From Victivallaceae bacterium (GTDB lineage Bacteria > Verrucomicrobiota > Lentisphaeria > Victivallales > Victivallaceae): a stretch of 64,000 nucleotides of DNA. Every line of letters starts with the position of its first letter. Position 1 is the stretch's first letter. Below the pieces are notes generated by a model. That model was not told the origin of the DNA, searched no databases, and was given only the letters and a program-made list of their open reading frames with translations. A program made the position numbers and the translations under genes. Of the stretch, positions 17,700 to 45,546 are shown one piece after another. The stretch spans positions 231,242 to 295,241 of the forward strand of contig OY761536.1 in NCBI GenBank assembly GCA_963664605.1, in the 5' to 3' direction.

Positions 17700-18692
17700 A
17701 TGTTATGTGAAAAATGCGGCAGCCAGATTTCTGAAGATAAAACCCATTGCGTCAAATGTGAAAAATCTCTTGAGGCAAGGAACAGATGTTCATCTTTCGA
17801 TGGAACGAGTGAAAAACAGTTCTATACACATTCAGGTAAAATTGCACCCCAACTGGTTCTCGGAGTGCCGATTCTTCTAATTGTATTTACTTTGCTGGCA
17901 TTCACTTATGCATACACTGTGGTATATATACCGATTATCGGGTATCTAAGTTTTCTTCTGACTATAGGTTTCGCGCTTGGCGTCGGTTTTTCAACAGCCG
18001 TAGTCCTGCAGTTCTTTAAGACTCGTAACTCTATATTTGCGTTTTGTTTCGGAATGGGAGCAGGTATTATTGCACTATATGCGGCATGGGTCACTTTTGA
18101 ATATGTATTCCTGAACAAAGTTTCCGATGAAAATATTGAACTGTTTCGTATAGCCAATCCCCGGGTTACCTGGGACATAGCCTGTTTCATTGCGGAAAAA
18201 GGATGGTATTCTATCCGGAGCTTTACTCCAAAAGGCGTGGTCTTGTGGGCTTTCTGGGGCATAGAAGCCTGTATTATAATCGGAGCTCCGGCTTATATGG
18301 CACATTCCTTTATTAAAGATTCAGTATTTTGCGAATCCTGCAAAGGCTGGGCGGATGATCACAAAAACAAACTTATCTTTGAATATCTCAGCGAAAGTGA
18401 ACTGAAGCAGAAACTGACCGTTCAAGACATGAGTTTTCTGGATAGTATCCTGAAAGTAAAACGCACCGCTGAATCTTTCTATCGTATAGACTGCAGCGCC
18501 TGCTGCACCTGTGACAACCTTTATACCTTGTCGCTTCTGAGGGTAACAAGAACCTGGGATAAAGAAGGCAAGGAAACTGATAAAGAAAAATATATACTCA
18601 AAAACCTGTTCATCTGCAAAGCAACTTTCGATAGACTGAACAACGCAAAGCCGAATGTTTCCGGGGCAACTGACAACGCCGGTGAAAGTTAA
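17700..18692 (+). CDS. Zinc-ribbon membrane protein, uncharacterised
   Basis: N-terminal CxxC...CxxC (CEKCGSQ...CVKCEKS), about 5 TM helices and a C-terminal Cys-containing soluble domain (CESCKGW, CSACCTCDN). Confidence 0.5.
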   Translation: MLCEKCGSQISEDKTHCVKCEKSLEARNRCSSFDGTSEKQFYTHSGKIAPQLVLGVPILLIVFTLLAFTYAYTVVYIPIIGYLSFLLTIGFALGVGFSTAVVLQFFKTRNSIFAFCFGMGAGIIALYAAWVTFEYVFLNKVSDENIELFRIANPRVTWDIACFIAEKGWYSIRSFTPKGVVLWAFWGIEACIIIGAPAYMAHSFIKDSVFCESCKGWADDHKNKLIFEYLSESELKQKLTVQDMSFLDSILKVKRTAESFYRIDCSACCTCDNLYTLSLLRVTRTWDKEGKETDKEKYILKNLFICKATFDRLNNAKPNVSGATDNAGES

Positions 18693-18771
18693 GAATCACC
18701 CAAAAGATAAAAACAAACAGCCCTAAATTACAGGTGACTGTTCTCCAACAAATAAAATAACAGGACAAAAA

Positions 18772-20175
18772 ATGATTATTAAAAACGGGTATACCAATAG
18801 TCATGACTTACCGAAACCAGTCTTACCGCCGGAAAACGAAAAATTAATTGAACTTTATTATGATGCCTGGCGGCTCGCTAAAGAGCATGTAAGACACGAT
18901 GCGCGTTTCCCTGCCCCTTATTTCATGGACGAAGGTTTTTGCCCTGAATACTCCTGGGTCTGGGACACCTGCTTTATGTCCATGTTTTGCCGTTATGCCG
19001 CAGACCTTTTTCCCGGTATCGAATCACTTGACAACTTCTATGCAATCCAGAAAGAAGATGGTTACATAACCATGACCGTCCAGGTCGATACTGGTGATGA
19101 CGCCTATCCGCTTCCCCACGGAAGAATCAATCCCCCCCTATTCGCCTGGGTAGAATGGGACAACTATAAAATAACTGGAGACTCTTCACGCTTTGAGCGC
19201 GTCCTCCCGCATTTACTTAAGCTGGATGAATGGATAGAGAAAAACCGTCGCCGTGAAGATGGCTCGTATTGGTTTGCCGACTGCGGCTCTTCGGGCATGG
19301 ACAACTCGCCCCGCACCTGCCGCGTCGACAACTTCGGCAATAACACTAACTTTATTGATCTCGCCTCTCAGCAGGCTTTCGCTGCCAACTGTATAGCAAA
19401 AATAGCTAATGTAACCGGCAACCGGGAAACCGCCGCTAAATACCTTGCCCTTTTCAAAAAACGCTCTGATTTCATCAACGAAAAACTTTGGGCCTCCCGC
19501 GATCACTTTTATTACGATGCCTATCTGGACGGACATTTTACCGGGTGCAAAACCGTCGCTTCATTCTGGCCTATGCAGGCAGAGGTGGCAGCTCCCGTGC
19601 AAGCTGCAAAGCTGGTTGAACATCTGGAAAATCCCTCCGAGTTTAATCGACCGCACTCCATTCCCACCCTGTCTTACGACAATCCAAATTTCAAAGATGA
19701 TGGCGGATACTGGTTAGGAGCGGTTTGGGCTCCGACTAACTACATGGTGGTCAAAGGGCTTGAGAAATACGGATTCAACAAACAGGCAAAAGAAATTGCT
19801 ATTCGCCATCTAAGCCATATGAAAACCGTCTACGACGAGTGCACTCCTCACACAATATGGGAATGCTATTCATCCGAATTCTCCAGGCCGGCAGAACGCG
19901 AGGAAGGAGGACGCGTCAGGCCGGATTTTGTCGGATGGAGCGGCTTGGGACCGATTTCAATGCTTATTGAGAACATAATAGGTCTTCGTATAGACTACCC
20001 GGCTGGAAAAATAACTTGGTTCAGTAACGAGATAGGCGAACATGGTGTAGAAAACCTGCGCTTTGGCCCCCACAGGATCTCGGTTGTAGCCAAAGCAAGA
20101 AAATCTACAACCGAAATTCCTGAAATCATTGTGGAAGCCGATTGTAAAGTAGCCATCGATTTTCAAACGTTCTGA
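18772..20175 (+). CDS. (alpha/alpha)6-barrel glycoside hydrolase, GH63/MGH1/trehalase-like
   Basis: WVWDTCFMS, FADCGSSGMDNSPR, GGYWLGAVWAPTNYMVVKGLEKYG and WECYSSE blocks are typical of GH63-like enzymes. Confidence 0.6.
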   Translation: MIIKNGYTNSHDLPKPVLPPENEKLIELYYDAWRLAKEHVRHDARFPAPYFMDEGFCPEYSWVWDTCFMSMFCRYAADLFPGIESLDNFYAIQKEDGYITMTVQVDTGDDAYPLPHGRINPPLFAWVEWDNYKITGDSSRFERVLPHLLKLDEWIEKNRRREDGSYWFADCGSSGMDNSPRTCRVDNFGNNTNFIDLASQQAFAANCIAKIANVTGNRETAAKYLALFKKRSDFINEKLWASRDHFYYDAYLDGHFTGCKTVASFWPMQAEVAAPVQAAKLVEHLENPSEFNRPHSIPTLSYDNPNFKDDGGYWLGAVWAPTNYMVVKGLEKYGFNKQAKEIAIRHLSHMKTVYDECTPHTIWECYSSEFSRPAEREEGGRVRPDFVGWSGLGPISMLIENIIGLRIDYPAGKITWFSNEIGEHGVENLRFGPHRISVVAKARKSTTEIPEIIVEADCKVAIDFQTF

Positions 20176-20226
20176 AAATTAAAAGTAGAATAAGCATACA
20201 AAGACAATATCAATTTGCGTTCAAAA

Positions 20227-21324
20227 CTATAAAACAGCTTGAAAACTTATTAATTCTCTTTGCCTTTCCCGAAGTCTGATAATATTTTCATACCGTCCGA
20301 ATTCGGGGTGGAGATTATTGTCTTTCCCGCAGCCCAGTTCAAGGCCTTCACCCGGCTGGTTATGGTCATCAGAACCATTTGTAAAAAGCAATGGAAGCTT
20401 ACCAGGGTGCTCACGGTTATAGCGTTGCCGCAGGCCTTCAAAAACCTCTATCTGAGGCAGACCGCATTCCGGGCATATTGCATTGCGCCAGCCATCGACC
20501 TCAAGAGTCTGCAAACCGCATTCTGCCAGTTCACAAATAATTTTATACAAATCTTCATTGCCGAGCTTTTCTTTGCTCCGCAACTCCGTTGGATGCGCAA
20601 TTCCCGGCAGCCCGCCCCATTTCCTTATGTGTTTTACAAATGCTTCAGGAGAAATATCCATATCCAGTTCCAACGACACATTCAACATATCATCACGAGT
20701 AGTATAACTCCCGTGAAAATGCTTGACATCGCTAGACAATCCAGCCTCAGCTAACCGCAAGCCGTATTTCTGCCACATGATGACGCTGATGTCACCTTTA
20801 GTGGAAACCCCGTTACGGACAAAACGGTCAATATCAGCGGGCGTTATTTCGGCAGAAAAGTTTAGTTTTGCAAAACATGCCGGTACTCGTGCCATCATAG
20901 CGCTTAATTGCTTTTCCTTGGCTGCCCGGATGGGTTCGCAAATCTCATCAAAAACTCCCGAATCAAGCTCTTTTAAAAAACATTCCCGGTCCGGGAAATG
21001 TCCTATAATCTCAATTCCTGAACGGTCAGTATAAAATTCAATCGCCGGAATAATATCTATTCCGAAAATCTTTCCAGCTTCAATAGCTTCCCGTTGGCCG
21101 TCAACTACGTCGTGGTCGGAAATCGCTATGCCTTTCATCCCTCGCCGCCAAGCCTCGAACACCCTGCCGGACGGGGAATTGTAGCCATCAGAATAAAAAG
21201 AATGACAATGCAGATCCGCCTCACAAACCGCATACATATCGGGTCTAAAGTTTTCTGCGAGCCAGCGCGCGGCCTCAAGACGTTTTTCAACTTTGCAATG
21301 AAAATCATTTATTTGTATCAGCAC
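20227..21324 (-). CDS. PHP domain-containing metal-dependent phosphoesterase
   Basis: ADLHCHSFYSDG ... GIAISDHD ... GIAHP ... GSDDH PHP motifs. Confidence 0.75.
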   Translation of the reverse strand: MLIQINDFHCKVEKRLEAARWLAENFRPDMYAVCEADLHCHSFYSDGYNSPSGRVFEAWRRGMKGIAISDHDVVDGQREAIEAGKIFGIDIIPAIEFYTDRSGIEIIGHFPDRECFLKELDSGVFDEICEPIRAAKEKQLSAMMARVPACFAKLNFSAEITPADIDRFVRNGVSTKGDISVIMWQKYGLRLAEAGLSSDVKHFHGSYTTRDDMLNVSLELDMDISPEAFVKHIRKWGGLPGIAHPTELRSKEKLGNEDLYKIICELAECGLQTLEVDGWRNAICPECGLPQIEVFEGLRQRYNREHPGKLPLLFTNGSDDHNQPGEGLELGCGKDNNLHPEFGRYENIIRLRERQRELISFQAVL

Positions 21325-21668
21325 ATTTATTCCTTTTTTATCAAAATTTACACAGCGAATAATAAATATATTATCTTTTATAATTTTTTATAGTAAAAGA
21401 ACGGCTAAAAGCCTGAAATATTTGTTTCGTCAGAGCTTTGCAGGAAAGCCGTTTACCATTGATTAATATTATTTTTATATTAAAATGATATTTTTGTATT
21501 AAATAAAACGGGAATATCACAGGATGTTTTCTTGAAATTTTGATTATTTCATGTTATTTTACAACATGTCGGATAGTCTATGTTTTGTGGTTTAACATAT
21601 TCTGTTTAGAATAATTTATTGATGAAAACAAAATCATATATAAGAGAAGATGCGGGAAAACAACGGTT

Positions 21669-21941
21669 ATGGCAGAGGCGCAGAAGAAAGTAAAAATTAT
21701 AAACACCCTTGGTTTGCATGCCCGGCCCGCATCATTATTTGTTAAAGTCGCAACCAGTTTTAAGTCTGAAATAATTGTTGAAAAGGACGGAGAAGAAGTA
21801 AACGGTAAAAGTCTGATGGGGCTGCTAATGCTTGCCGCCGCATCAGGAAGCATTATTAATATTTCAGCAAAAGGTGAAGACTGCGAACATGCTTTAAAAG
21901 CTATTGTTGAATTAATAGAAAGAAAATTTGAAGAGGAATAA
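21669..21941 (+). CDS. ptsH: Phosphocarrier protein HPr
   Basis: GLHARPA (His15 site) and VNGKSLMGLLML (Ser46 site). Confidence 0.9.
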   Translation: MAEAQKKVKIINTLGLHARPASLFVKVATSFKSEIIVEKDGEEVNGKSLMGLLMLAAASGSIINISAKGEDCEHALKAIVELIERKFEEE

Positions 21942-21946
21942 GCATA

Positions 21947-23737
21947 GTGTCTGAAGCAAAAGAGAAAATATATCACGGTATCGGAGCTTCTCCCGGCATT
22001 GCGATCGGAAAAGTACTGCTCATCAAAGAACACAGCACATCCTATGTCAAACCGGAAGATACTACTATTACCCCAGAACAGGTTGACGCTGAAATTGAAA
22101 AATTTGACAGGGCTTTGAATAGAACCCGTAACGAACTTGAAGATCTTCAAAAGCGGGTACTTAATAAACTTCAATCTCATGAAGCAAGCATCTTTGACGC
22201 ACATCTGCTGATCGTTGACGACCAAATGCTGCAGAGCGAAGTACATGATAGTATAAGAAACCAACTAATCTCTGCCGATTGTGCTTTTTTCAAGATCATG
22301 GAACGTTATGTCACAGCGATTTCGGTCATGAAAGACGATTATATAAAAGAACGGGTCGCGGATATAAAGGATGTCGCCTCAAGGGTATTAGCCAATCTGC
22401 GGGAAACAAACCGCCCCGCCCTGGATTACCTTGAGGACATGCGAATTATAATCGCTCACGACTTGACCCCTTCGGACACAGTCCTGCTTGACCGCCAGAA
22501 AGTACAGGCTTTCGCGATTGAGAGCGGCAGCAATACGTCACACACGGCAATTCTCGCACGCTCAATGCAGATACCGTCCGTTGTTAATATTCAGGGAAAC
22601 ATAGTCGATAAACTTGAAAATGATGATAATATAATTGTTGACGGCTTTATCGGCACAGTTATTGTCCATCCCAGCGAAAAGACCCGCAAAGCTTATCAGT
22701 TGAAGGCAAAAGAGGAAGGGCGTTTTTATATTGATTTGATTCGTGAAAGCCGCCTCCGTCCGGAAACCCTTGACGGCTTCACCGTACAGTTGGCTTCCAA
22801 TATTGAAACTCTGGCAGACATCCAGACCGCAAAAAAATTCGGCACTAGCGGAGTCGGTTTGTTCCGTACCGAATATATGTATATGGGGAACAAGGAACTG
22901 CCCACGGAAGAAGCCCAGGTAGAAACATTTAAAAACTTAATCAAAGAAATGAATGGAGAGCCTGTAATCGTCAGGACACTGGATATCGGCGGCGATAAAT
23001 ATTGCGAAAACTTGTCGCTCCGCAAAGAAGCCAATCCGTTTTTGGGGCTGCGTGCAATCCGGCTCTGCCTGCATGAATGTCAGGATGTTTTCCGAACTCA
23101 ACTGCGTGCTCTGCTTCGGGCGGGAGCTATTGGAAACCTTAAAATAATGCTGCCGATGATCTCATGCGTTCAGGAAGTATTGCAAGTTAAGAAGATCATT
23201 GAAAATTTGAAAAAAGAACTATCCAAAGAAGGCCTGCCTTTCAACCGCAATATTGAAGTAGGTATTATGATCGAGACTCCAGCCGCGGCATTAATGGCGG
23301 AACATTTCGCTAAACACGTTGACTTTTTCAGTATCGGCACGAATGATCTGATCCAATATACTATCGCTATCGACCGTGATAATGAAAGGGTATCTTATCT
23401 CTATGAACCAACCAATCCGGCAATCCTGTATTTAATAAAAAATGTTGTGGAAGCCGCTAAAAAGAACCGTATTTGGGTCAGCGTCTGCGGACAAATGGCA
23501 GGCAGCCCGCAATATGTTCCATTGCTGCTGGGGATGGGCGTACATGAATTAAGCATGGTTCCAATGTCTCTTGGCGCGATACGACGTATTATTCGCAAGC
23601 TGAATATGCATGAGGCTGAAGTCGCGGCAGAAAAAGCATTGAAATGCTCAAAAGCACAGGATGCTTTGAACATTTCATTGGAACTGCTAAAGAAGATTGA
23701 ACCGGAAATCACCGATCTGGCATTCCGCGGGTTATAG
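21947..23737 (+). CDS. ptsI: Phosphoenolpyruvate-protein phosphotransferase (PTS Enzyme I)
   Basis: GSNTSHTAILARSMQIPSV phospho-His region, GLFRTEYMYM and FFSIGTNDLIQYT. GTG start 5 nt after the ptsH stop. Confidence 0.92.
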   Translation: MSEAKEKIYHGIGASPGIAIGKVLLIKEHSTSYVKPEDTTITPEQVDAEIEKFDRALNRTRNELEDLQKRVLNKLQSHEASIFDAHLLIVDDQMLQSEVHDSIRNQLISADCAFFKIMERYVTAISVMKDDYIKERVADIKDVASRVLANLRETNRPALDYLEDMRIIIAHDLTPSDTVLLDRQKVQAFAIESGSNTSHTAILARSMQIPSVVNIQGNIVDKLENDDNIIVDGFIGTVIVHPSEKTRKAYQLKAKEEGRFYIDLIRESRLRPETLDGFTVQLASNIETLADIQTAKKFGTSGVGLFRTEYMYMGNKELPTEEAQVETFKNLIKEMNGEPVIVRTLDIGGDKYCENLSLRKEANPFLGLRAIRLCLHECQDVFRTQLRALLRAGAIGNLKIMLPMISCVQEVLQVKKIIENLKKELSKEGLPFNRNIEVGIMIETPAAALMAEHFAKHVDFFSIGTNDLIQYTIAIDRDNERVSYLYEPTNPAILYLIKNVVEAAKKNRIWVSVCGQMAGSPQYVPLLLGMGVHELSMVPMSLGAIRRIIRKLNMHEAEVAAEKALKCSKAQDALNISLELLKKIEPEITDLAFRGL

Positions 23738-23739
23738 AT

Positions 23740-24432
23740 ATGGACGGCATAAAGGTAATCGCTTTTGATGCAGATGACACCTTATGGGAAAATCAACCTC
23801 ATTTCACCCAGACTATAAACGAATTTACTAAGCTTTTAAAACCGTATTGCTCTGAGGGGACAAGTGAAAAGGCCATCCTTGCCGCTCAAGTTGATAATCT
23901 TCCGATATATGGCTTCGGCGCCAGATCTTTAACTTTATCAATGCTTCAGACCGCTTGTAAATTATCAAATCACCATATTGATGCTTTAGGTATTGAAAAA
24001 ATAATTGAACTCGGCAGAAAACTTCTGACCATGCCGGTCGAACTTTTAGATTCTGCTGAAGAAGTCATAAAAGAGCTCAAAGGGAAATACCGCCTGATAT
24101 TGATAACCAAGGGGGATTTGGTGGAACAGGAACGCAAATTGCGCGATTCAGGTTTAAGCAAATATTTTCATCATATTGAAATATTGAGTGATAAAAGAAT
24201 AGAAGATTACAAAAATTTATTTGACCGGCTTGATGTGACACCGAAAGAATTTATCATGATAGGAAATTCCCTGAAATCAGATATAATCCCGGTTCTTGAA
24301 CTGAACGCCAAAGCTATTTACATTCCATATCACAGCACCTGGGAGCACGAGCACGTTAGCGACTATGACTTAGGGCATAAGAATCTGACTAAAATAGAAA
24401 AATTAAGCGATCTGATTGGAATGCTCATATAA
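23740..24432 (+). CDS. HAD-superfamily hydrolase
   Basis: AFDADDTLW (DxDxT), ILITKGD and IMIGNSLKSDI motifs. Confidence 0.8.
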   Translation: MDGIKVIAFDADDTLWENQPHFTQTINEFTKLLKPYCSEGTSEKAILAAQVDNLPIYGFGARSLTLSMLQTACKLSNHHIDALGIEKIIELGRKLLTMPVELLDSAEEVIKELKGKYRLILITKGDLVEQERKLRDSGLSKYFHHIEILSDKRIEDYKNLFDRLDVTPKEFIMIGNSLKSDIIPVLELNAKAIYIPYHSTWEHEHVSDYDLGHKNLTKIEKLSDLIGMLI

Positions 24433-24434
24433 AT

Positions 24435-25739
24435 TTATGGTTCAATGAGTTTGCTTGTTTCGCTTTCCCCTTCAGCGAGAGTGGCAATACTCTGAGGCAT
24501 TTCCTTTTTGACTTTCACACCAAGCTCAACAAAACCTTCAGCCTGACGGATTAAATTACCTTTGCCAAGAGTCAGTTTGTTCATCGCATCCTGATAAGTT
24601 TTATCAACTGTATCAAGTTGTTTGCCTATTTTTTCGAAGTCTTCAAGGAAACCGCGCAGTTTGTCATAGACCGCACCCGCCTTATCAGCAATCTGCCTGG
24701 AATTTTCATTCTGCCGCTCGTAACGCCAAATGTTCTCAATAGTACGTAAAGTCGCCAGCAAAGTCGTCGGGGTTACAACCACTATTTTCTTTTCAAAGGC
24801 GGTATTGAAAAGCTTTTCATCGGATTGAAAAGCCGCCATAAAAGCAGCGTCTATCGGCATGAACAGCAAGATAAAATCTAAAGAACGCAAGCCCTTAAGA
24901 CTGGAATAATCCTTACCGCTGAGATTATTTATATGTTCGCGCACCGAGTGAACATGAGCGGCAAGAGCTTTTTTTTGTTCGTCCGCATTATCGCTGTTAA
25001 TATATTCATTGTAATGGATCAATGATACCTTGGAGTCAATTATTATGTCTTTTCCTTCAGGCAGATGAATGATGACGTCAGGCTTAAGAAGGCTGTTTTC
25101 CGTATTGCGGAAAGCTTTTTGTATCTCGTATTCCCTGCCTTTTCTTAACCCGGATTGCTCAAGGACTTTTTCAAGAATCATTTCTCCCCAATTTCCCTGG
25201 GCTTTATTGTCGCCTTTCAAAGCCCGCGTAAGGCTTTTGGCTTCTTTATTCATTTCCTGATTAAGGGTTTGAAGTTGTTCAATATGCCCCCGCAGGGTAT
25301 TTCTGTCCTTTGCGTCTTCGTGATGAATTTCGTCAACGCGTTTTCGAAAATCCCCCAACTGGGTATGCATGGGTTTAAGGAGTTCGTTCAGACTGCTTTT
25401 ATTCTGTTCCGCAAAGCGTTTGCTTTTTTCCTCCAGAATTTTATTTGCCAGGTTTTCGAATTCCACAGTCATGCGTTTTTTGACTTCTTCAAACTCCTTA
25501 AGACGTTCTTCATTCTGTTTTTTTTGTTCCTCAAGGCGGGTTTTAAGCTCAGAATGACCTGCCATACTGCTTGCCGCCTGTTCGGTAAGGGTGTTTATTT
25601 TTTCATCCTTTTCCGCAAGAGCAGCCTCCAGCCGGGCAAGCTGCGCCTTGCGTTCCTTTGAAATAAAATAGTGGATCAGGAGGCCCAGAGCCAGCCCCAG
25701 AAGCAAAGCGATTAAAGGATAAATTGTTTCCATTGTCAT
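24435..25739 (-). CDS. rmuC: DNA recombination protein RmuC
   Basis: N-terminal TM, a long Lys/Glu coiled coil and a C-terminal RmuC nuclease-like block (PDVIIHLPEGKDIIIDSKVSL ... DFILLFMP). Confidence 0.88.
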   Translation of the reverse strand: MTMETIYPLIALLLGLALGLLIHYFISKERKAQLARLEAALAEKDEKINTLTEQAASSMAGHSELKTRLEEQKKQNEERLKEFEEVKKRMTVEFENLANKILEEKSKRFAEQNKSSLNELLKPMHTQLGDFRKRVDEIHHEDAKDRNTLRGHIEQLQTLNQEMNKEAKSLTRALKGDNKAQGNWGEMILEKVLEQSGLRKGREYEIQKAFRNTENSLLKPDVIIHLPEGKDIIIDSKVSLIHYNEYINSDNADEQKKALAAHVHSVREHINNLSGKDYSSLKGLRSLDFILLFMPIDAAFMAAFQSDEKLFNTAFEKKIVVVTPTTLLATLRTIENIWRYERQNENSRQIADKAGAVYDKLRGFLEDFEKIGKQLDTVDKTYQDAMNKLTLGKGNLIRQAEGFVELGVKVKKEMPQSIATLAEGESETSKLIEP

Positions 25740-25904
25740 TCCGTGAAATTTATTTTATAATTATAACAATAGCACATGAAAGAATATGCACAAGTTATCT
25801 TATCCAGATACTTTTAAAGAAATCCAGCTCTTATTTCGAGAACCGGTTGACAAGTTTTTTTATTGGTAAGAGGCACATGGGGTGTTTCTGAAAAATAAAA
25901 AATG

Positions 25905-25982
25905 TATCCACGAATCATACAAATTATCACTAAACATTCGTGAAGTTCGTGTAGTTCATGGATGAAAAAGGAGAGCAATAAA
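25905..25982 (+). promoter_or_regulatory. Leader element copy 1 (inverted CACGAA plus three tandem 9-nt TTCGYG units abutting the RBS)
   Basis: TCCACGAAT at 25907-25915. ATTCGTGAA/GTTCGTGTA/GTTCATGGA at 25936-25962, then AAGGAG at 25968-25973. About 80 percent identical by hand alignment to copy 2. Confidence 0.6.
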
Positions 25983-26411
25983 ATGCAGGATGTTCAAAGG
26001 AATGATTTCAAGTTCGGTTCAGGAGAAGTCACATACAAAGGTACTTTCCTCGGTCAAAGCCGTGGAGTCATCGGAATCAGCAGAAAAACCAGTGTCCACG
26101 AAGTTAAAAAAGATTCAAACTCAATTGTCGCGGATTGCTCAGTAATAACCGGGATCAGACTGGAAATTTCAATGACTCTGCTTGCCACAGACGCCAGCGT
26201 GGAGGAATTCTTCAATCTGCAAACTTTACTACTTTCCCCGTTAATAGGTTCCGACCTCTCCGCCACCGCCGGAACGTTGGTCATTAAGCTTGATGACACA
26301 GGTGTCGAACATACTTTTTCCAATGTCGTCATCGATCCTGGTTTCAAACATTATTTGGGGAGTGATGACAACATCATTGATGTGGTTTTCTACAGTTACA
26401 GCAACTCATAA
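25983..26411 (+). CDS. Hypothetical beta-rich protein A (142 aa), possibly with a phage tail-tube-like fold
   Basis: The start was chosen at the ATG 9 nt after AAGGAG, parallel to the gene B start. The N-terminal FKFGSGEVTYKGTFLGQS and later blocks are paralogous to gene B. Confidence 0.55.
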   Translation: MQDVQRNDFKFGSGEVTYKGTFLGQSRGVIGISRKTSVHEVKKDSNSIVADCSVITGIRLEISMTLLATDASVEEFFNLQTLLLSPLIGSDLSATAGTLVIKLDDTGVEHTFSNVVIDPGFKHYLGSDDNIIDVVFYSYSNS

Positions 26412-26424
26412 AATAACAAAGGCA

Positions 26425-26505
26425 TATCCACGAATCACACAGATTGACACGAAAGAAGCATTCGTAAAATTCGCGTAGTTCGTGGACAAAAAAGGAGAAT
26501 AAATT
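26425..26505 (+). promoter_or_regulatory. Leader element copy 2 (intercistronic)
   Basis: TCCACGAAT at 26427-26435 and an extra CACGAA at 26448-26453. ATTCGTAAA/ATTCGCGTA/GTTCGTGGA at 26460-26486, then AAGGAG. A perfect 8-bp inverted repeat TCCACGAA/TTCGTGGA is present. Confidence 0.6.
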
Positions 26506-27399
26506 ATGTCATCAGAAACACAAAACTTCAAAATCGGTCCTTGTTCAATCACCTACAAGGGCGAACTGCTGGGAATTACTAATAACTCGTCTATTTTAAG
26601 CTTCAGTTTTAATTATTATGATGTAAAATGCAACAAAACTCACGATCAGGTTCTCGAAAAACGTTTAACTGGTATTGAGATCACCTTTAAAACAGAAATT
26701 TTACAAGTAGATAAAGGATTGGATTTTATTTTTGACGGCAACAATACTCTGACTTTGGATGAGCTGGGGAAACGCATGAGTCATGAAGGTGGAGAATTAT
26801 TAATCGTCCCGATAAATCCTAACGACAAAACCGCATATCGTCTACCAAACGCTATCGTTGTGAATAATAGTGACTGCAGTTTTAATACAAACGAAGAATA
26901 TGCGTTAAAGTTGGAATTTGAGGCCAATTACAATGACGGCGAGGAAATCCTGATTCAGCGTCTGGATGCCGACAGTCTGGAAAGAGCAAGTTTGCCCAGC
27001 ATTAATGATATTGATTCAATCGTTTTTGAGCGAGCTATGACCACATATATCGCTGATAAAATGAACATGACTGTTGATAGTGATATTTTCCGTAGTGGAG
27101 TTCCGTTAAATATTGAGGGGTGCGGTGTAGAGCTTGTAGGACAGCAAACTGATGATTCGTTAAGATGTCAACGGTATGTTGTTCGTTTCTCCTGCCTTAA
27201 TAACTCTCGTGACACCGTAATGGAAACTATCAATATTTTCAATTCTCAATTCCCGGTATACGGTGAAAGCATTAATGTTGACGGTGAAGATATTGAATGC
27301 AAGACCATCTTGAGAAATTTTAGTGAGTATGAACGTACAATCAGCGACAGCGGAAAAATCAAGATTCTTGGTGAATCGGTATTGACTGTAATAATCTAG
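26506..27399 (+). CDS. Hypothetical protein B (297 aa): an A-like N-terminal domain plus an extra C-terminal alpha/beta domain (tail-terminator-like pattern)
   Basis: FKIGPCSITYKGELLGIT, LTGIEITFKTEIL and GELLIVPIN parallel protein A. The C-terminus contains IFRSGVPLNIEG ... RYVVRFSCLNNSRD. Confidence 0.55.
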   Translation: MSSETQNFKIGPCSITYKGELLGITNNSSILSFSFNYYDVKCNKTHDQVLEKRLTGIEITFKTEILQVDKGLDFIFDGNNTLTLDELGKRMSHEGGELLIVPINPNDKTAYRLPNAIVVNNSDCSFNTNEEYALKLEFEANYNDGEEILIQRLDADSLERASLPSINDIDSIVFERAMTTYIADKMNMTVDSDIFRSGVPLNIEGCGVELVGQQTDDSLRCQRYVVRFSCLNNSRDTVMETINIFNSQFPVYGESINVDGEDIECKTILRNFSEYERTISDSGKIKILGESVLTVII

Positions 27400-27417
27400 A
27401 ACCCTGGAAAATAAAAA

Positions 27418-45502: not shown

Positions 45503-45546
45503 CACTTATCCTGCCCGCTGAAATCAGCGGGCAGGATAAGTGTTTT
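45503..45546 (+). terminator. Strong rho-independent terminator
   Basis: Perfect 16-18 bp stem CTTATCCTGCCCGCTG-aaat-CAGCGGGCAGGATAAG followed by TGTTTT. Confidence 0.85.

Follow-up and report, generated by a model that had tools for sequence, protein, structure and literature searches.

A conserved intercistronic stem-loop between two tail-tube-like genes of Victivallales and its additional copy in one gene leader

We have analysed a 64,000-nt stretch of DNA from a Victivallaceae bacterium (contig OY761536.1; hereafter the window, to which all coordinates refer unless a locus is named) that carries on its plus strand three adjacent genes, which we call A, B and C. A long imperfect stem-loop lies in the spacer between A and B, and a second version of it lies in the 5' leader of gene A; the leader version is designated copy 1 (WIN1), the spacer version copy 2 (WIN2), and the loci of relatives are given L numbers. 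The hairpin is conserved in relatives with compensatory changes, and in other lineages it is replaced by hairpins of unrelated sequence. It is most likely a locus-specific intercistronic stem-loop, which is a known kind of structure, and not a riboswitch or a thermosensor.

A preliminary description of this DNA had reported a duplicated leader, about 80% identical between its copies and interrupted by one 4-nt indel. Alignment with MAFFT agrees with this: positions 25880-26000 and 26400-26525 have a mean column identity of 81% with one 4-nt indel, and a repeat finder returned ungapped blocks at 25905-25934 / 26425-26454 (83%) and 25932-25974 / 26456-26498 (84%). In the MAFFT alignment a weak likeness between the copies continues for ~15 nt 5' of the stem. 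All the motifs quoted in that description were found where it had placed them: TCCACGAA at 25907 (copy 1) and 26427 (copy 2), the 9-nt TTCGYG units at 25936-25962 and 26460-26486, respectively, and an extra CACGAA of copy 2 at 26448-26453. Gene A starts at 25983, not 25984. The 27-nt pattern formed by the three units, with up to three mismatches allowed, occurs at two places in the 64 kb, with none expected from 100 shuffles. On the sense strand both copies run into YRAAAAAGGAG, i.e. an A-run and the ribosome-binding site (RBS).

The three 9-nt units belong to one long imperfect hairpin, of which they make up the 3' arm; its 5' arm consists of three mirror 9-nt units (TCCACGAAT, CACACAGAT and TGACACGAA in copy 2). 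The hairpin potential that had been ascribed to the element is thus real, with one nested hairpin per copy. Copy 1 (58 nt) forms ~23 bp with a folding energy of -14.3 to -16.1 kcal/mol (z = -2.5 to -2.9), and copy 2 (62 nt) reaches -18.9 kcal/mol (z = -3.9). Within 3 kcal/mol there are 42-47 suboptimal structures, every one of which retains this nested hairpin with no shift of register. At 20, 30, 37 and 45°C the probability that the Shine-Dalgarno (SD) motif AAGGAG is unpaired is at least 0.98 for copy 1 and at least 0.92 for copy 2. In the minimum-energy fold of copy 2 only, the AUG of gene B pairs weakly with GGCAUA just 5' of the stem; neither copy 1 nor most relatives have such pairing. 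When 25000-28500 was scanned permissively against Rfam 15 (E up to 10), no match fell on the element, and a gathering-level scan of the whole window gave no match anywhere, which bears out the earlier remark that the element belongs to no known riboswitch or leader class. Two candidate features were set aside. A 13-codon upstream open reading frame at 25902-25943 (encoding MYPRIIQIITKHS, then a stop codon), which has its ATG just 5' of copy 1 and crosses the 5' arm, was dismissed since it has no SD and is absent at copy 2 and in relatives. An integron attC site was considered; the GTTRRRY core is absent, and no integrase was found among the 10 neighbouring open reading frames (ORFs) scanned (17700-25739 and 29283-34384).

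We folded 25 distinct A-B spacers from Victivallales, with identical spacers merged (L022 = L017; L003 = L013 = L014). A hairpin of the TCCACGAA type is present in 13 of them (window, L035, L033, L047, L031, L030, L028, L027, L034, L025, L022, L003 and a truncated L020), and in seven others (L004, L012, L029, L002, L005, L018 and L006) a hairpin of unrelated sequence occupies the same place. The unrelated hairpins include a perfect 15-bp stem in L004 (z = -4.4) and those of L012 (z = -9.2), L029 (z = -2.6) and L002 (z = -3.4); the spacer hairpins of L004, L012, L028, L030, L031, L033 and L022 together span z = -4.4 to -11.4. The stem of the TCCACGAA-type hairpins ends 7-12 nt before the SD of gene B. 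Its length is 19-23 bp in WIN1, WIN2, L028, L030, L031 and L047 and 11 bp in L003; the unrelated stem of L029 has 7-11 bp. Three mirrored 9-nt units recur in WIN1, WIN2, L033, L031, L047 and L030, and the number of units per arm ranges from one (L003) through about two without periodicity (L022 and L028) to three. The arms are separated by as little as 9 nt in L003 and by as much as ~60 nt in L027, where the loop carries an insertion. This insertion (L027 3920-3965) holds ~35 nt of 7-9-nt tandem units (CGGCTTACGG CTCACGT CTTACGG CCTACGT) and can form a small hairpin of its own. The centre of the hairpin (TTGACACTAAAAAAACATT) stands in opposite orientations in L022 (599-640) and L025 (1190-1240), i.e. 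the loop is flipped inside the inverted repeat. A covariance model built from six copies, with which we searched the window and 28 loci (188 kb), matched once per A-B spacer and at copy 1, with nothing else significant. Eleven matches of viral contigs to TCCACGAAT-N11-41-ATTCGTGGA were rejected as chance: none lies near an A or B homolog, and their contexts are unrelated.

Pairing of the two arms is seen in the alignments themselves. RNAalifold returned a 19-bp consensus stem in which four pairs are changed on both sides. In the same alignment, of six sequences, 86.7% of cells are paired; sliding the partners by 1-3 columns lowers this to 30-40%. In the basal 14 bp, compared over 11 loci, 94.5% of cells pair, with both-sided changes at positions 4, 6, 9, 10 and 11 and with G.U intermediates. 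Compensatory changes are found, for example, in L028 (TCCGCAAAT/ATTTGCGGA) and in L047, where G-C has become U-A (TCCACTAATT/AATTAGTGGA); L034 has a G.U intermediate at position 4. Together with the free distance between the arms and the inverted centre, the compensatory changes argue for a structure that needs paired arms and not for a fixed protein-DNA site.

Table 1. Coordinates of the two stem-loops, the genes and the leader features of the A-B-C locus in the window
Feature	Position	Strand	Remarks
Conserved CCGGTTGACA box 5' of gene A	25843..25852	+	Promoter-like; no canonical -10 at sigma-70 spacing
Small 8-bp stem-loop (AGAGGCAC / GUGUUUCU), putative native 5'-leader hairpin of gene A	25869..25889	+	Folds in every temperature run
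A-rich left junction (GAAAAATAAAAAATG) before copy 1	25890..25904	+	Resembles L025 leader CTGCAAAAATAAAAGGAAATG and B-C junction 27404-27420 (repeat families D2, D6)
Copy 1, long stem-loop in gene A 5' leader	25905..25964	+	Covariance-model match 69.7 bits, E = 4.8e-16; window lineage only
Shine-Dalgarno AAGGAG of gene A	25968..25973	+	5 nt after copy 1; read from sequence
Gene A, 142 aa, predicted phage tail-tube/Hcp-like fold	25983..26411	+	40 homologs, most 70-85% identity; AlphaFold2 model
Copy 2, long stem-loop in A-B intercistronic spacer (ancestral position)	26425..26488	+	Covariance-model match 78.9 bits
Shine-Dalgarno AAGGAG of gene B	26492..26497	+	5 nt after copy 2; read from sequence
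Gene B, 297 aa, predicted tube-like N-terminal domain paralogous to A plus C-terminal domain	26506..27399	+	phrog_2175 E = 3e-10; AlphaFold2 model
Gene C, 259 aa, third gene of conserved A-B-C cluster	27418..28197	+	Kept 3' of B in L027, L029, L016, L047 and others

Over 97 aa the A and B proteins are 25% identical (E = 1e-6), and with their structural models they are best described as ancient paralogs with a predicted phage tail-tube/Hcp fold. The AlphaFold2 model of A (mean predicted local distance difference test score, pLDDT, 73) has its best PDB matches in phage 812 neck/tail proteins, Hcp1 and the diffocin tube; that of B (pLDDT 76) matches tail tube, tail terminator and Hcp folds, and the phrog_2175 match falls on the N-terminus of B. 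Searches of Pfam, NCBIfam and PADLOC assigned none of the three proteins to a family, the A alignment used as a profile against the PDB gave no match, tblastn of B against a phage genome collection gave none either, and a literature search for Victivallales and tail tube found no papers. We collected 55 homologs of B in addition to those of A, and every source that names an organism is from Victivallaceae or Victivallales (phylum Lentisphaerota). A is the best conserved of the genes, and B homologs range from 34% to 92% identity.

The neighbours of the trio in the window are housekeeping genes (rmuC, HAD hydrolase, phosphotransferase system enzyme I, dprA and aroB), which means that the locus is no prophage. 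Each genome has at least two to three loci with the A-B-C trio, and their flanks vary. As a module (window 25983-28197; L027, L028, L029, L030, L031, L033, L047 and L048) it is confined to Victivallales; gene C encodes ~260 aa, a convergent TPR gene usually adjoins, and there are no sheath, baseplate or capsid genes nearby. Transposase genes (ISL3, Transposase_mut and IS66) lie in or beside gene C or 5' of A at L028 5403-6614, L029 5875-7086 and L031 97-1629, gene C of L028 being split by the ISL3 element. Gene B of L033 was predicted as two separate ORFs and is possibly a pseudogene.

Leaders of gene A have a layout of their own. In 20 extracted leaders the GGTTGACA (TTGACA) box is followed by ~14 T-rich nt, TGnnAAGAG, a small stem-loop (e.g. 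GAGCGGCAATAAAGCGCGCTC) and then AAAGGAGCAT-ATG. GGTTGACA is present in all 20 and invariant in the 17 leaders that were aligned. The distance from the box to the ATG is 70-84 nt in the extracted leaders and 143 nt in the window. From the box to any -10-like hexamer the spacing is too short for a textbook sigma-70 promoter, and a sigma-70 scan of the window did not list the CCGGTTGACA box. Individual folds of other gene A leaders contain an equivalent of the small window hairpin at the same position; RNAalifold, run on a MAFFT alignment of the leaders, gave no consensus structure for it.

The long hairpin is found in none of the 22 other gene A leaders (the 20 extracted, L047 and L048), and it is likewise missing before A in the syntenic L033, where rmuC again lies upstream and the rmuC-A spacer is similar. 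It follows that copy 1 is a copy of the A-B spacer specific to this lineage and joined at the RBS. The preliminary description was to be refuted by a lack of homologous leaders in other genomes; such a lack is not borne out, as homologous elements exist at 13 distinct Victivallales loci. By this comparison the A-B spacer is the ancestral place and copy 1 the derived one, and we infer that the whole spacer (stop codon region, hairpin, A-rich linker and SD) was copied into the leader. The SD region of gene A, GGAGAGCAATAAAATG (GGAGAGCAAT), reads as a cross between the B-type GGAGAA and the A-type GGAGCATTATAAAATG (GGAGCAT). The shared AAAGGAG may have served as microhomology for unequal recombination or gene conversion, which is the likely route; alternatively, gene A may have been duplicated in tandem and the first copy then lost. 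Gene A of the window lineage now has a hairpin on either side. The A-rich junction to the left of copy 1 may represent the remains of an earlier RBS and start codon, or of the A-rich sequence with which the spacer begins. A slightly longer stretch, CTGAAAAATAAAAAATGTAT (25888-25907), agrees in 18 of 20 positions with the B-C junction CTGGAAAATAAAAAATGGAT (27404-27423), within which gene C has its start codon; the match may again reflect an earlier RBS and start codon, or may be due to chance in low-complexity sequence.

The derived status of copy 1 bears on a claim made earlier, namely that a leader better conserved than the adjacent paralogous coding sequences implies selection on the leader. 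This argument fails because A and B are old paralogs while copy 1, absent from the 22 leaders, is recent by comparison. Across species the hairpin is 65-86% identical and gene A DNA ~75-85%, so that the hairpin is no better conserved. It is possible, though on balance we doubt it, that copy 1 has no function of its own and is a neutral by-product of unequal crossover or gene conversion that is now decaying. It is unique to the window lineage, it is the least stable member of the family (3 A.C mismatches and 4 G.U pairs in ~23 pairs, for -14 to -16 kcal/mol), and at 77-81% identity it is about as divergent from copy 2 as orthologs from other species. Its divergence and low stability indicate that copy 1 is old and relaxed, or derived from another locus. 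However, copy 1 still folds better than shuffled sequence and has kept the exact spacing between hairpin and SD. Decay would moreover concern copy 1 only and is compatible with the explanation that we prefer for copy 2.

Recombination has affected the locus more widely. Compared with the window, L035 (Joint Genome Institute 3300010411) is 90-100% identical over 26180-26540 (~360 nt) and 100% identical over 26380-26500, which includes the hairpin. The ~360-nt tract covers the second half of A, the hairpin and the opening codons of B; outside it identity is 62-82% in the first half of A and 72-90% deeper in B. Such a tract suggests that loci or lineages have recently recombined or undergone gene conversion. 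Mosaic structure is seen in other loci as well, with breakpoints also elsewhere in B, and the identities of A and B are discordant between loci (L027, A 77% and B 92%; L030, A 85% and B 49%). The earlier suggestion of gene conversion acting on the leader finds partial support here: a tract of 90-100% identity crosses the hairpin in a locus that is otherwise 62-82% identical.

Among the explanations that concern the element as a whole, a sequence-specific protein site on the RNA comes closest to the one that we prefer, and we consider it unlikely. The hairpin would be an RNase III-type processing site, or would bind a dedicated translational regulator through its three stacked 9-bp modules, and would control the gene directly downstream. 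The basal stem sequence is kept across loci in which A is only 41-48% identical, the 19-23 bp reached in many loci are enough for an enzyme that binds double-stranded RNA, the distance from stem to SD is held within the 7-12 nt of all TCCACGAA-type loci, copy 1 having the same spacing, and the three mirrored units recur in the six copies named above. Phage T7 polycistronic mRNAs carry intercistronic RNase III sites, which are likewise imperfect hairpins of ~20 bp or more between cistrons of a phage-type structural array, with several related copies per transcript just 5' of the next RBS. Unlike these sites, the stem here varies from 11 bp (L003) to ~23 bp (window), and the periodic 1x1 mismatches of the window copies are not a T7-type internal loop. 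About two helical turns of largely paired double-stranded RNA are characteristic of RNase III sites. Sequence-specific recognition is weighed down by the seven lineages with unrelated hairpins, by the five loci without any and by the recombination tracts across the element; such tracts, together with slow evolution of paired stems, can explain the conservation of sequence. Furthermore, the number of units varies, and the SD is never sequestered.

A transcriptional attenuator or terminator after gene A, or an insulator against antisense read-through from the convergent TPR gene, we regard as quite unlikely. As in intrinsic (Rho-independent) terminators, a stem-loop follows a stop codon, and in three relatives a T-run comes after the spacer hairpin (TTATTTTT in L012, CTTTT in L030 and GCCGCTTTTAAATTTT in L018). 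The minus strand is T-rich after the hairpin, e.g. CATTTTTTATTTTT after copy 1, and the stop codons of the convergent gene C and TPR gene are just 6 nt apart. The window stems, in contrast, are AT-rich, and the A-run and RBS that follow both copies leave no U-tract; a terminator scan listed neither copy, and copy 1, being 5' of the first gene, would as a terminator silence the operon. A canonical terminator is not supported in the window because of this A-run, unlike at 45503-45542, where a 19-bp perfect stem between co-oriented ORFs is followed by TTTT and resembles a classical terminator. Another stem of the window, 23 bp and imperfect without a T-run, lies at 29218-29265 between dprA and the TPR gene.

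Highly doubtful, in our estimate, is that the element acts as DNA, either as a palindromic operator array for a repeat-binding regulator or as a cruciform or recombination hotspot that exchanges A and B-C cassettes among paralogous loci. The symmetry of the element is nearly equal on both strands, its 9-bp units occur as direct and inverted repeats, the ~360-nt tract of the mosaic locus is centred on the hairpin, the identities of A and B are discordant in L027 and L030, and the central part is inverted in L022. Against this, mosaic breakpoints also fall elsewhere in B, compensatory changes preserve pairing and not a recognition sequence, and unrelated hairpins substitute in other lineages. 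The phased 9-nt binding array or DNA operator envisaged earlier is likewise improbable, given one to three units per arm, half-sites 9 to ~70 nt apart (unlike a fixed protein-DNA complex), a centre inverted in one lineage and the unrelated hairpins; iteron- or heptad-type repressor sites would have units of fixed number, spacing and orientation with respect to a promoter. No conserved promoter overlaps the element: an internal promoter in the loop (TTGACA-N15-TAAAAT in copy 2) was rejected because the spacing from TTGACA to -10-like hexamers varies from 11 to 15 nt among relatives and TTGACA is on the opposite strand in L022. Palindromic repeats of the REPIN, MITE-like or Correia kinds resemble the element in that a ~60-nt imperfect palindrome has been copied to a second intergenic site. 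They differ in that the element is present only twice in 64 kb and once per locus in the 28 others searched, keeps the same orthologous position across species, and is accompanied by no evident target-site duplication or transposase.

The mutually exclusive hairpins imagined at first, in which CACGAA would pair alternately with the three TTCGYG units of an RNA thermometer or ligand-sensing switch, are extremely improbable: repeated units can in principle pair in shifted registers, and the AUG of gene B is weakly paired in copy 2, but every fold within 3 kcal/mol keeps the one nested hairpin, the SD is open from 20 to 45°C, unlike in thermometers of the ROSE or fourU type, where a helix that melts with temperature sequesters the SD, the AUG or both, Rfam gave no match, a single stem offers no conserved multi-helix core, and the AUG pairing is missing in copy 1 and most relatives.

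The explanation that we prefer, and to which we give about even chances, is that the element is a conserved RNA stem-loop of a polycistronic A-B-C mRNA with a protective, processing or attenuating role, which would set the level of A relative to B and C. Its placement, its conservation and the analogous systems lead us to infer that it acts as RNA and affects the stability, processing or attenuation of the mRNA. The hairpin could act in one or more of the following ways: as a 3' barrier that shields the gene A segment from 3'-5' exonucleases, as a partial terminator in some lineages, given the T-runs after their stems, or by giving the B-C segment a structured 5' end or a site for processing. 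Overall, the gene A product would be made in excess over B and C. Gene A presumably encodes the abundant or major subunit, and the predicted tube/Hcp folds of A and B, together with the better conservation of A, would fit a major subunit followed by minor ones.

Several observations weigh against this stem-loop reading. Five of the 25 spacers have no hairpin at all (L007, L011, L016, L021 and L048). In the 6-sequence alignment the column-shuffle control for covariation was not significant. There is no consistent folding asymmetry between the strands, WIN2 and L033 folding better on the minus strand and L030 and L031 on the plus strand, and plus-strand G.U pairs (10) barely outnumber A.C mismatches (6); these comparisons give no clear indication of selection specific to the sense RNA. 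Finally, the basal stem TCCACGAAT/ATTCGTGGA is retained where gene A is only 41% identical (L022 and L025), which hints at sequence-specific recognition or at spread by recombination.

Known systems nevertheless provide close counterparts for a stem-loop with such a role. A 3' protective structure after the first gene in malE-malF and 5' hairpins in papA reshape the stoichiometry of their operons (Dar and Sorek 2018, PMC5927463). Like the intercistronic stem-loops of malE-malF (a repetitive extragenic palindromic, REP, hairpin) and of Rhodobacter puf, the Victivallales element is a stable hairpin directly after the first and presumably most abundant gene; it is conserved in orthologous operons, has no U-tract and is expected to give differential stoichiometry. 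Unlike the malE-malF hairpin it is locus-specific and not part of a dispersed REP family, and it differs from the protective stem-loops in its proximity to the next SD (TCCACGAA-type loci) and in its three-fold 9-bp periodicity. The 5' stabilising hairpins of papA, after RNase E processing, and of the ompA 5' untranslated region are similar in that a hairpin stands a few nt 5' of an exposed A-rich RBS, and copy 1 lies in a true 5' leader. Gene A differs from these cases in already having a small conserved leader hairpin of its own (25869-25889).

A more far-reaching proposal is decidedly unlikely. The three stacked 9-bp modules (NNCACGAAU/AUUCGUGNN) would be a platform for a dedicated regulator or nuclease that sets the subunit ratios of a Victivallales-specific, phage-tail-derived, tube-only assembly encoded by A-B-C at several loci per genome, and loci would also exchange their A and B-C cassettes at the conserved palindrome.

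If the preferred explanation is true, the element would be a candidate structured RNA motif, specific to its locus and not in Rfam, from the barely studied Lentisphaerota (Victivallales). It would offer a simple handle on differential expression within operons of the Planctomycetes-Verrucomicrobia-Chlamydiae (PVC) group and would open no new mechanism. Gene A would also stand out as the likely source of the major subunit in a conserved module of three genes with predicted tail-tube folds, and this A-B-C module is arguably more intriguing than the hairpin itself.

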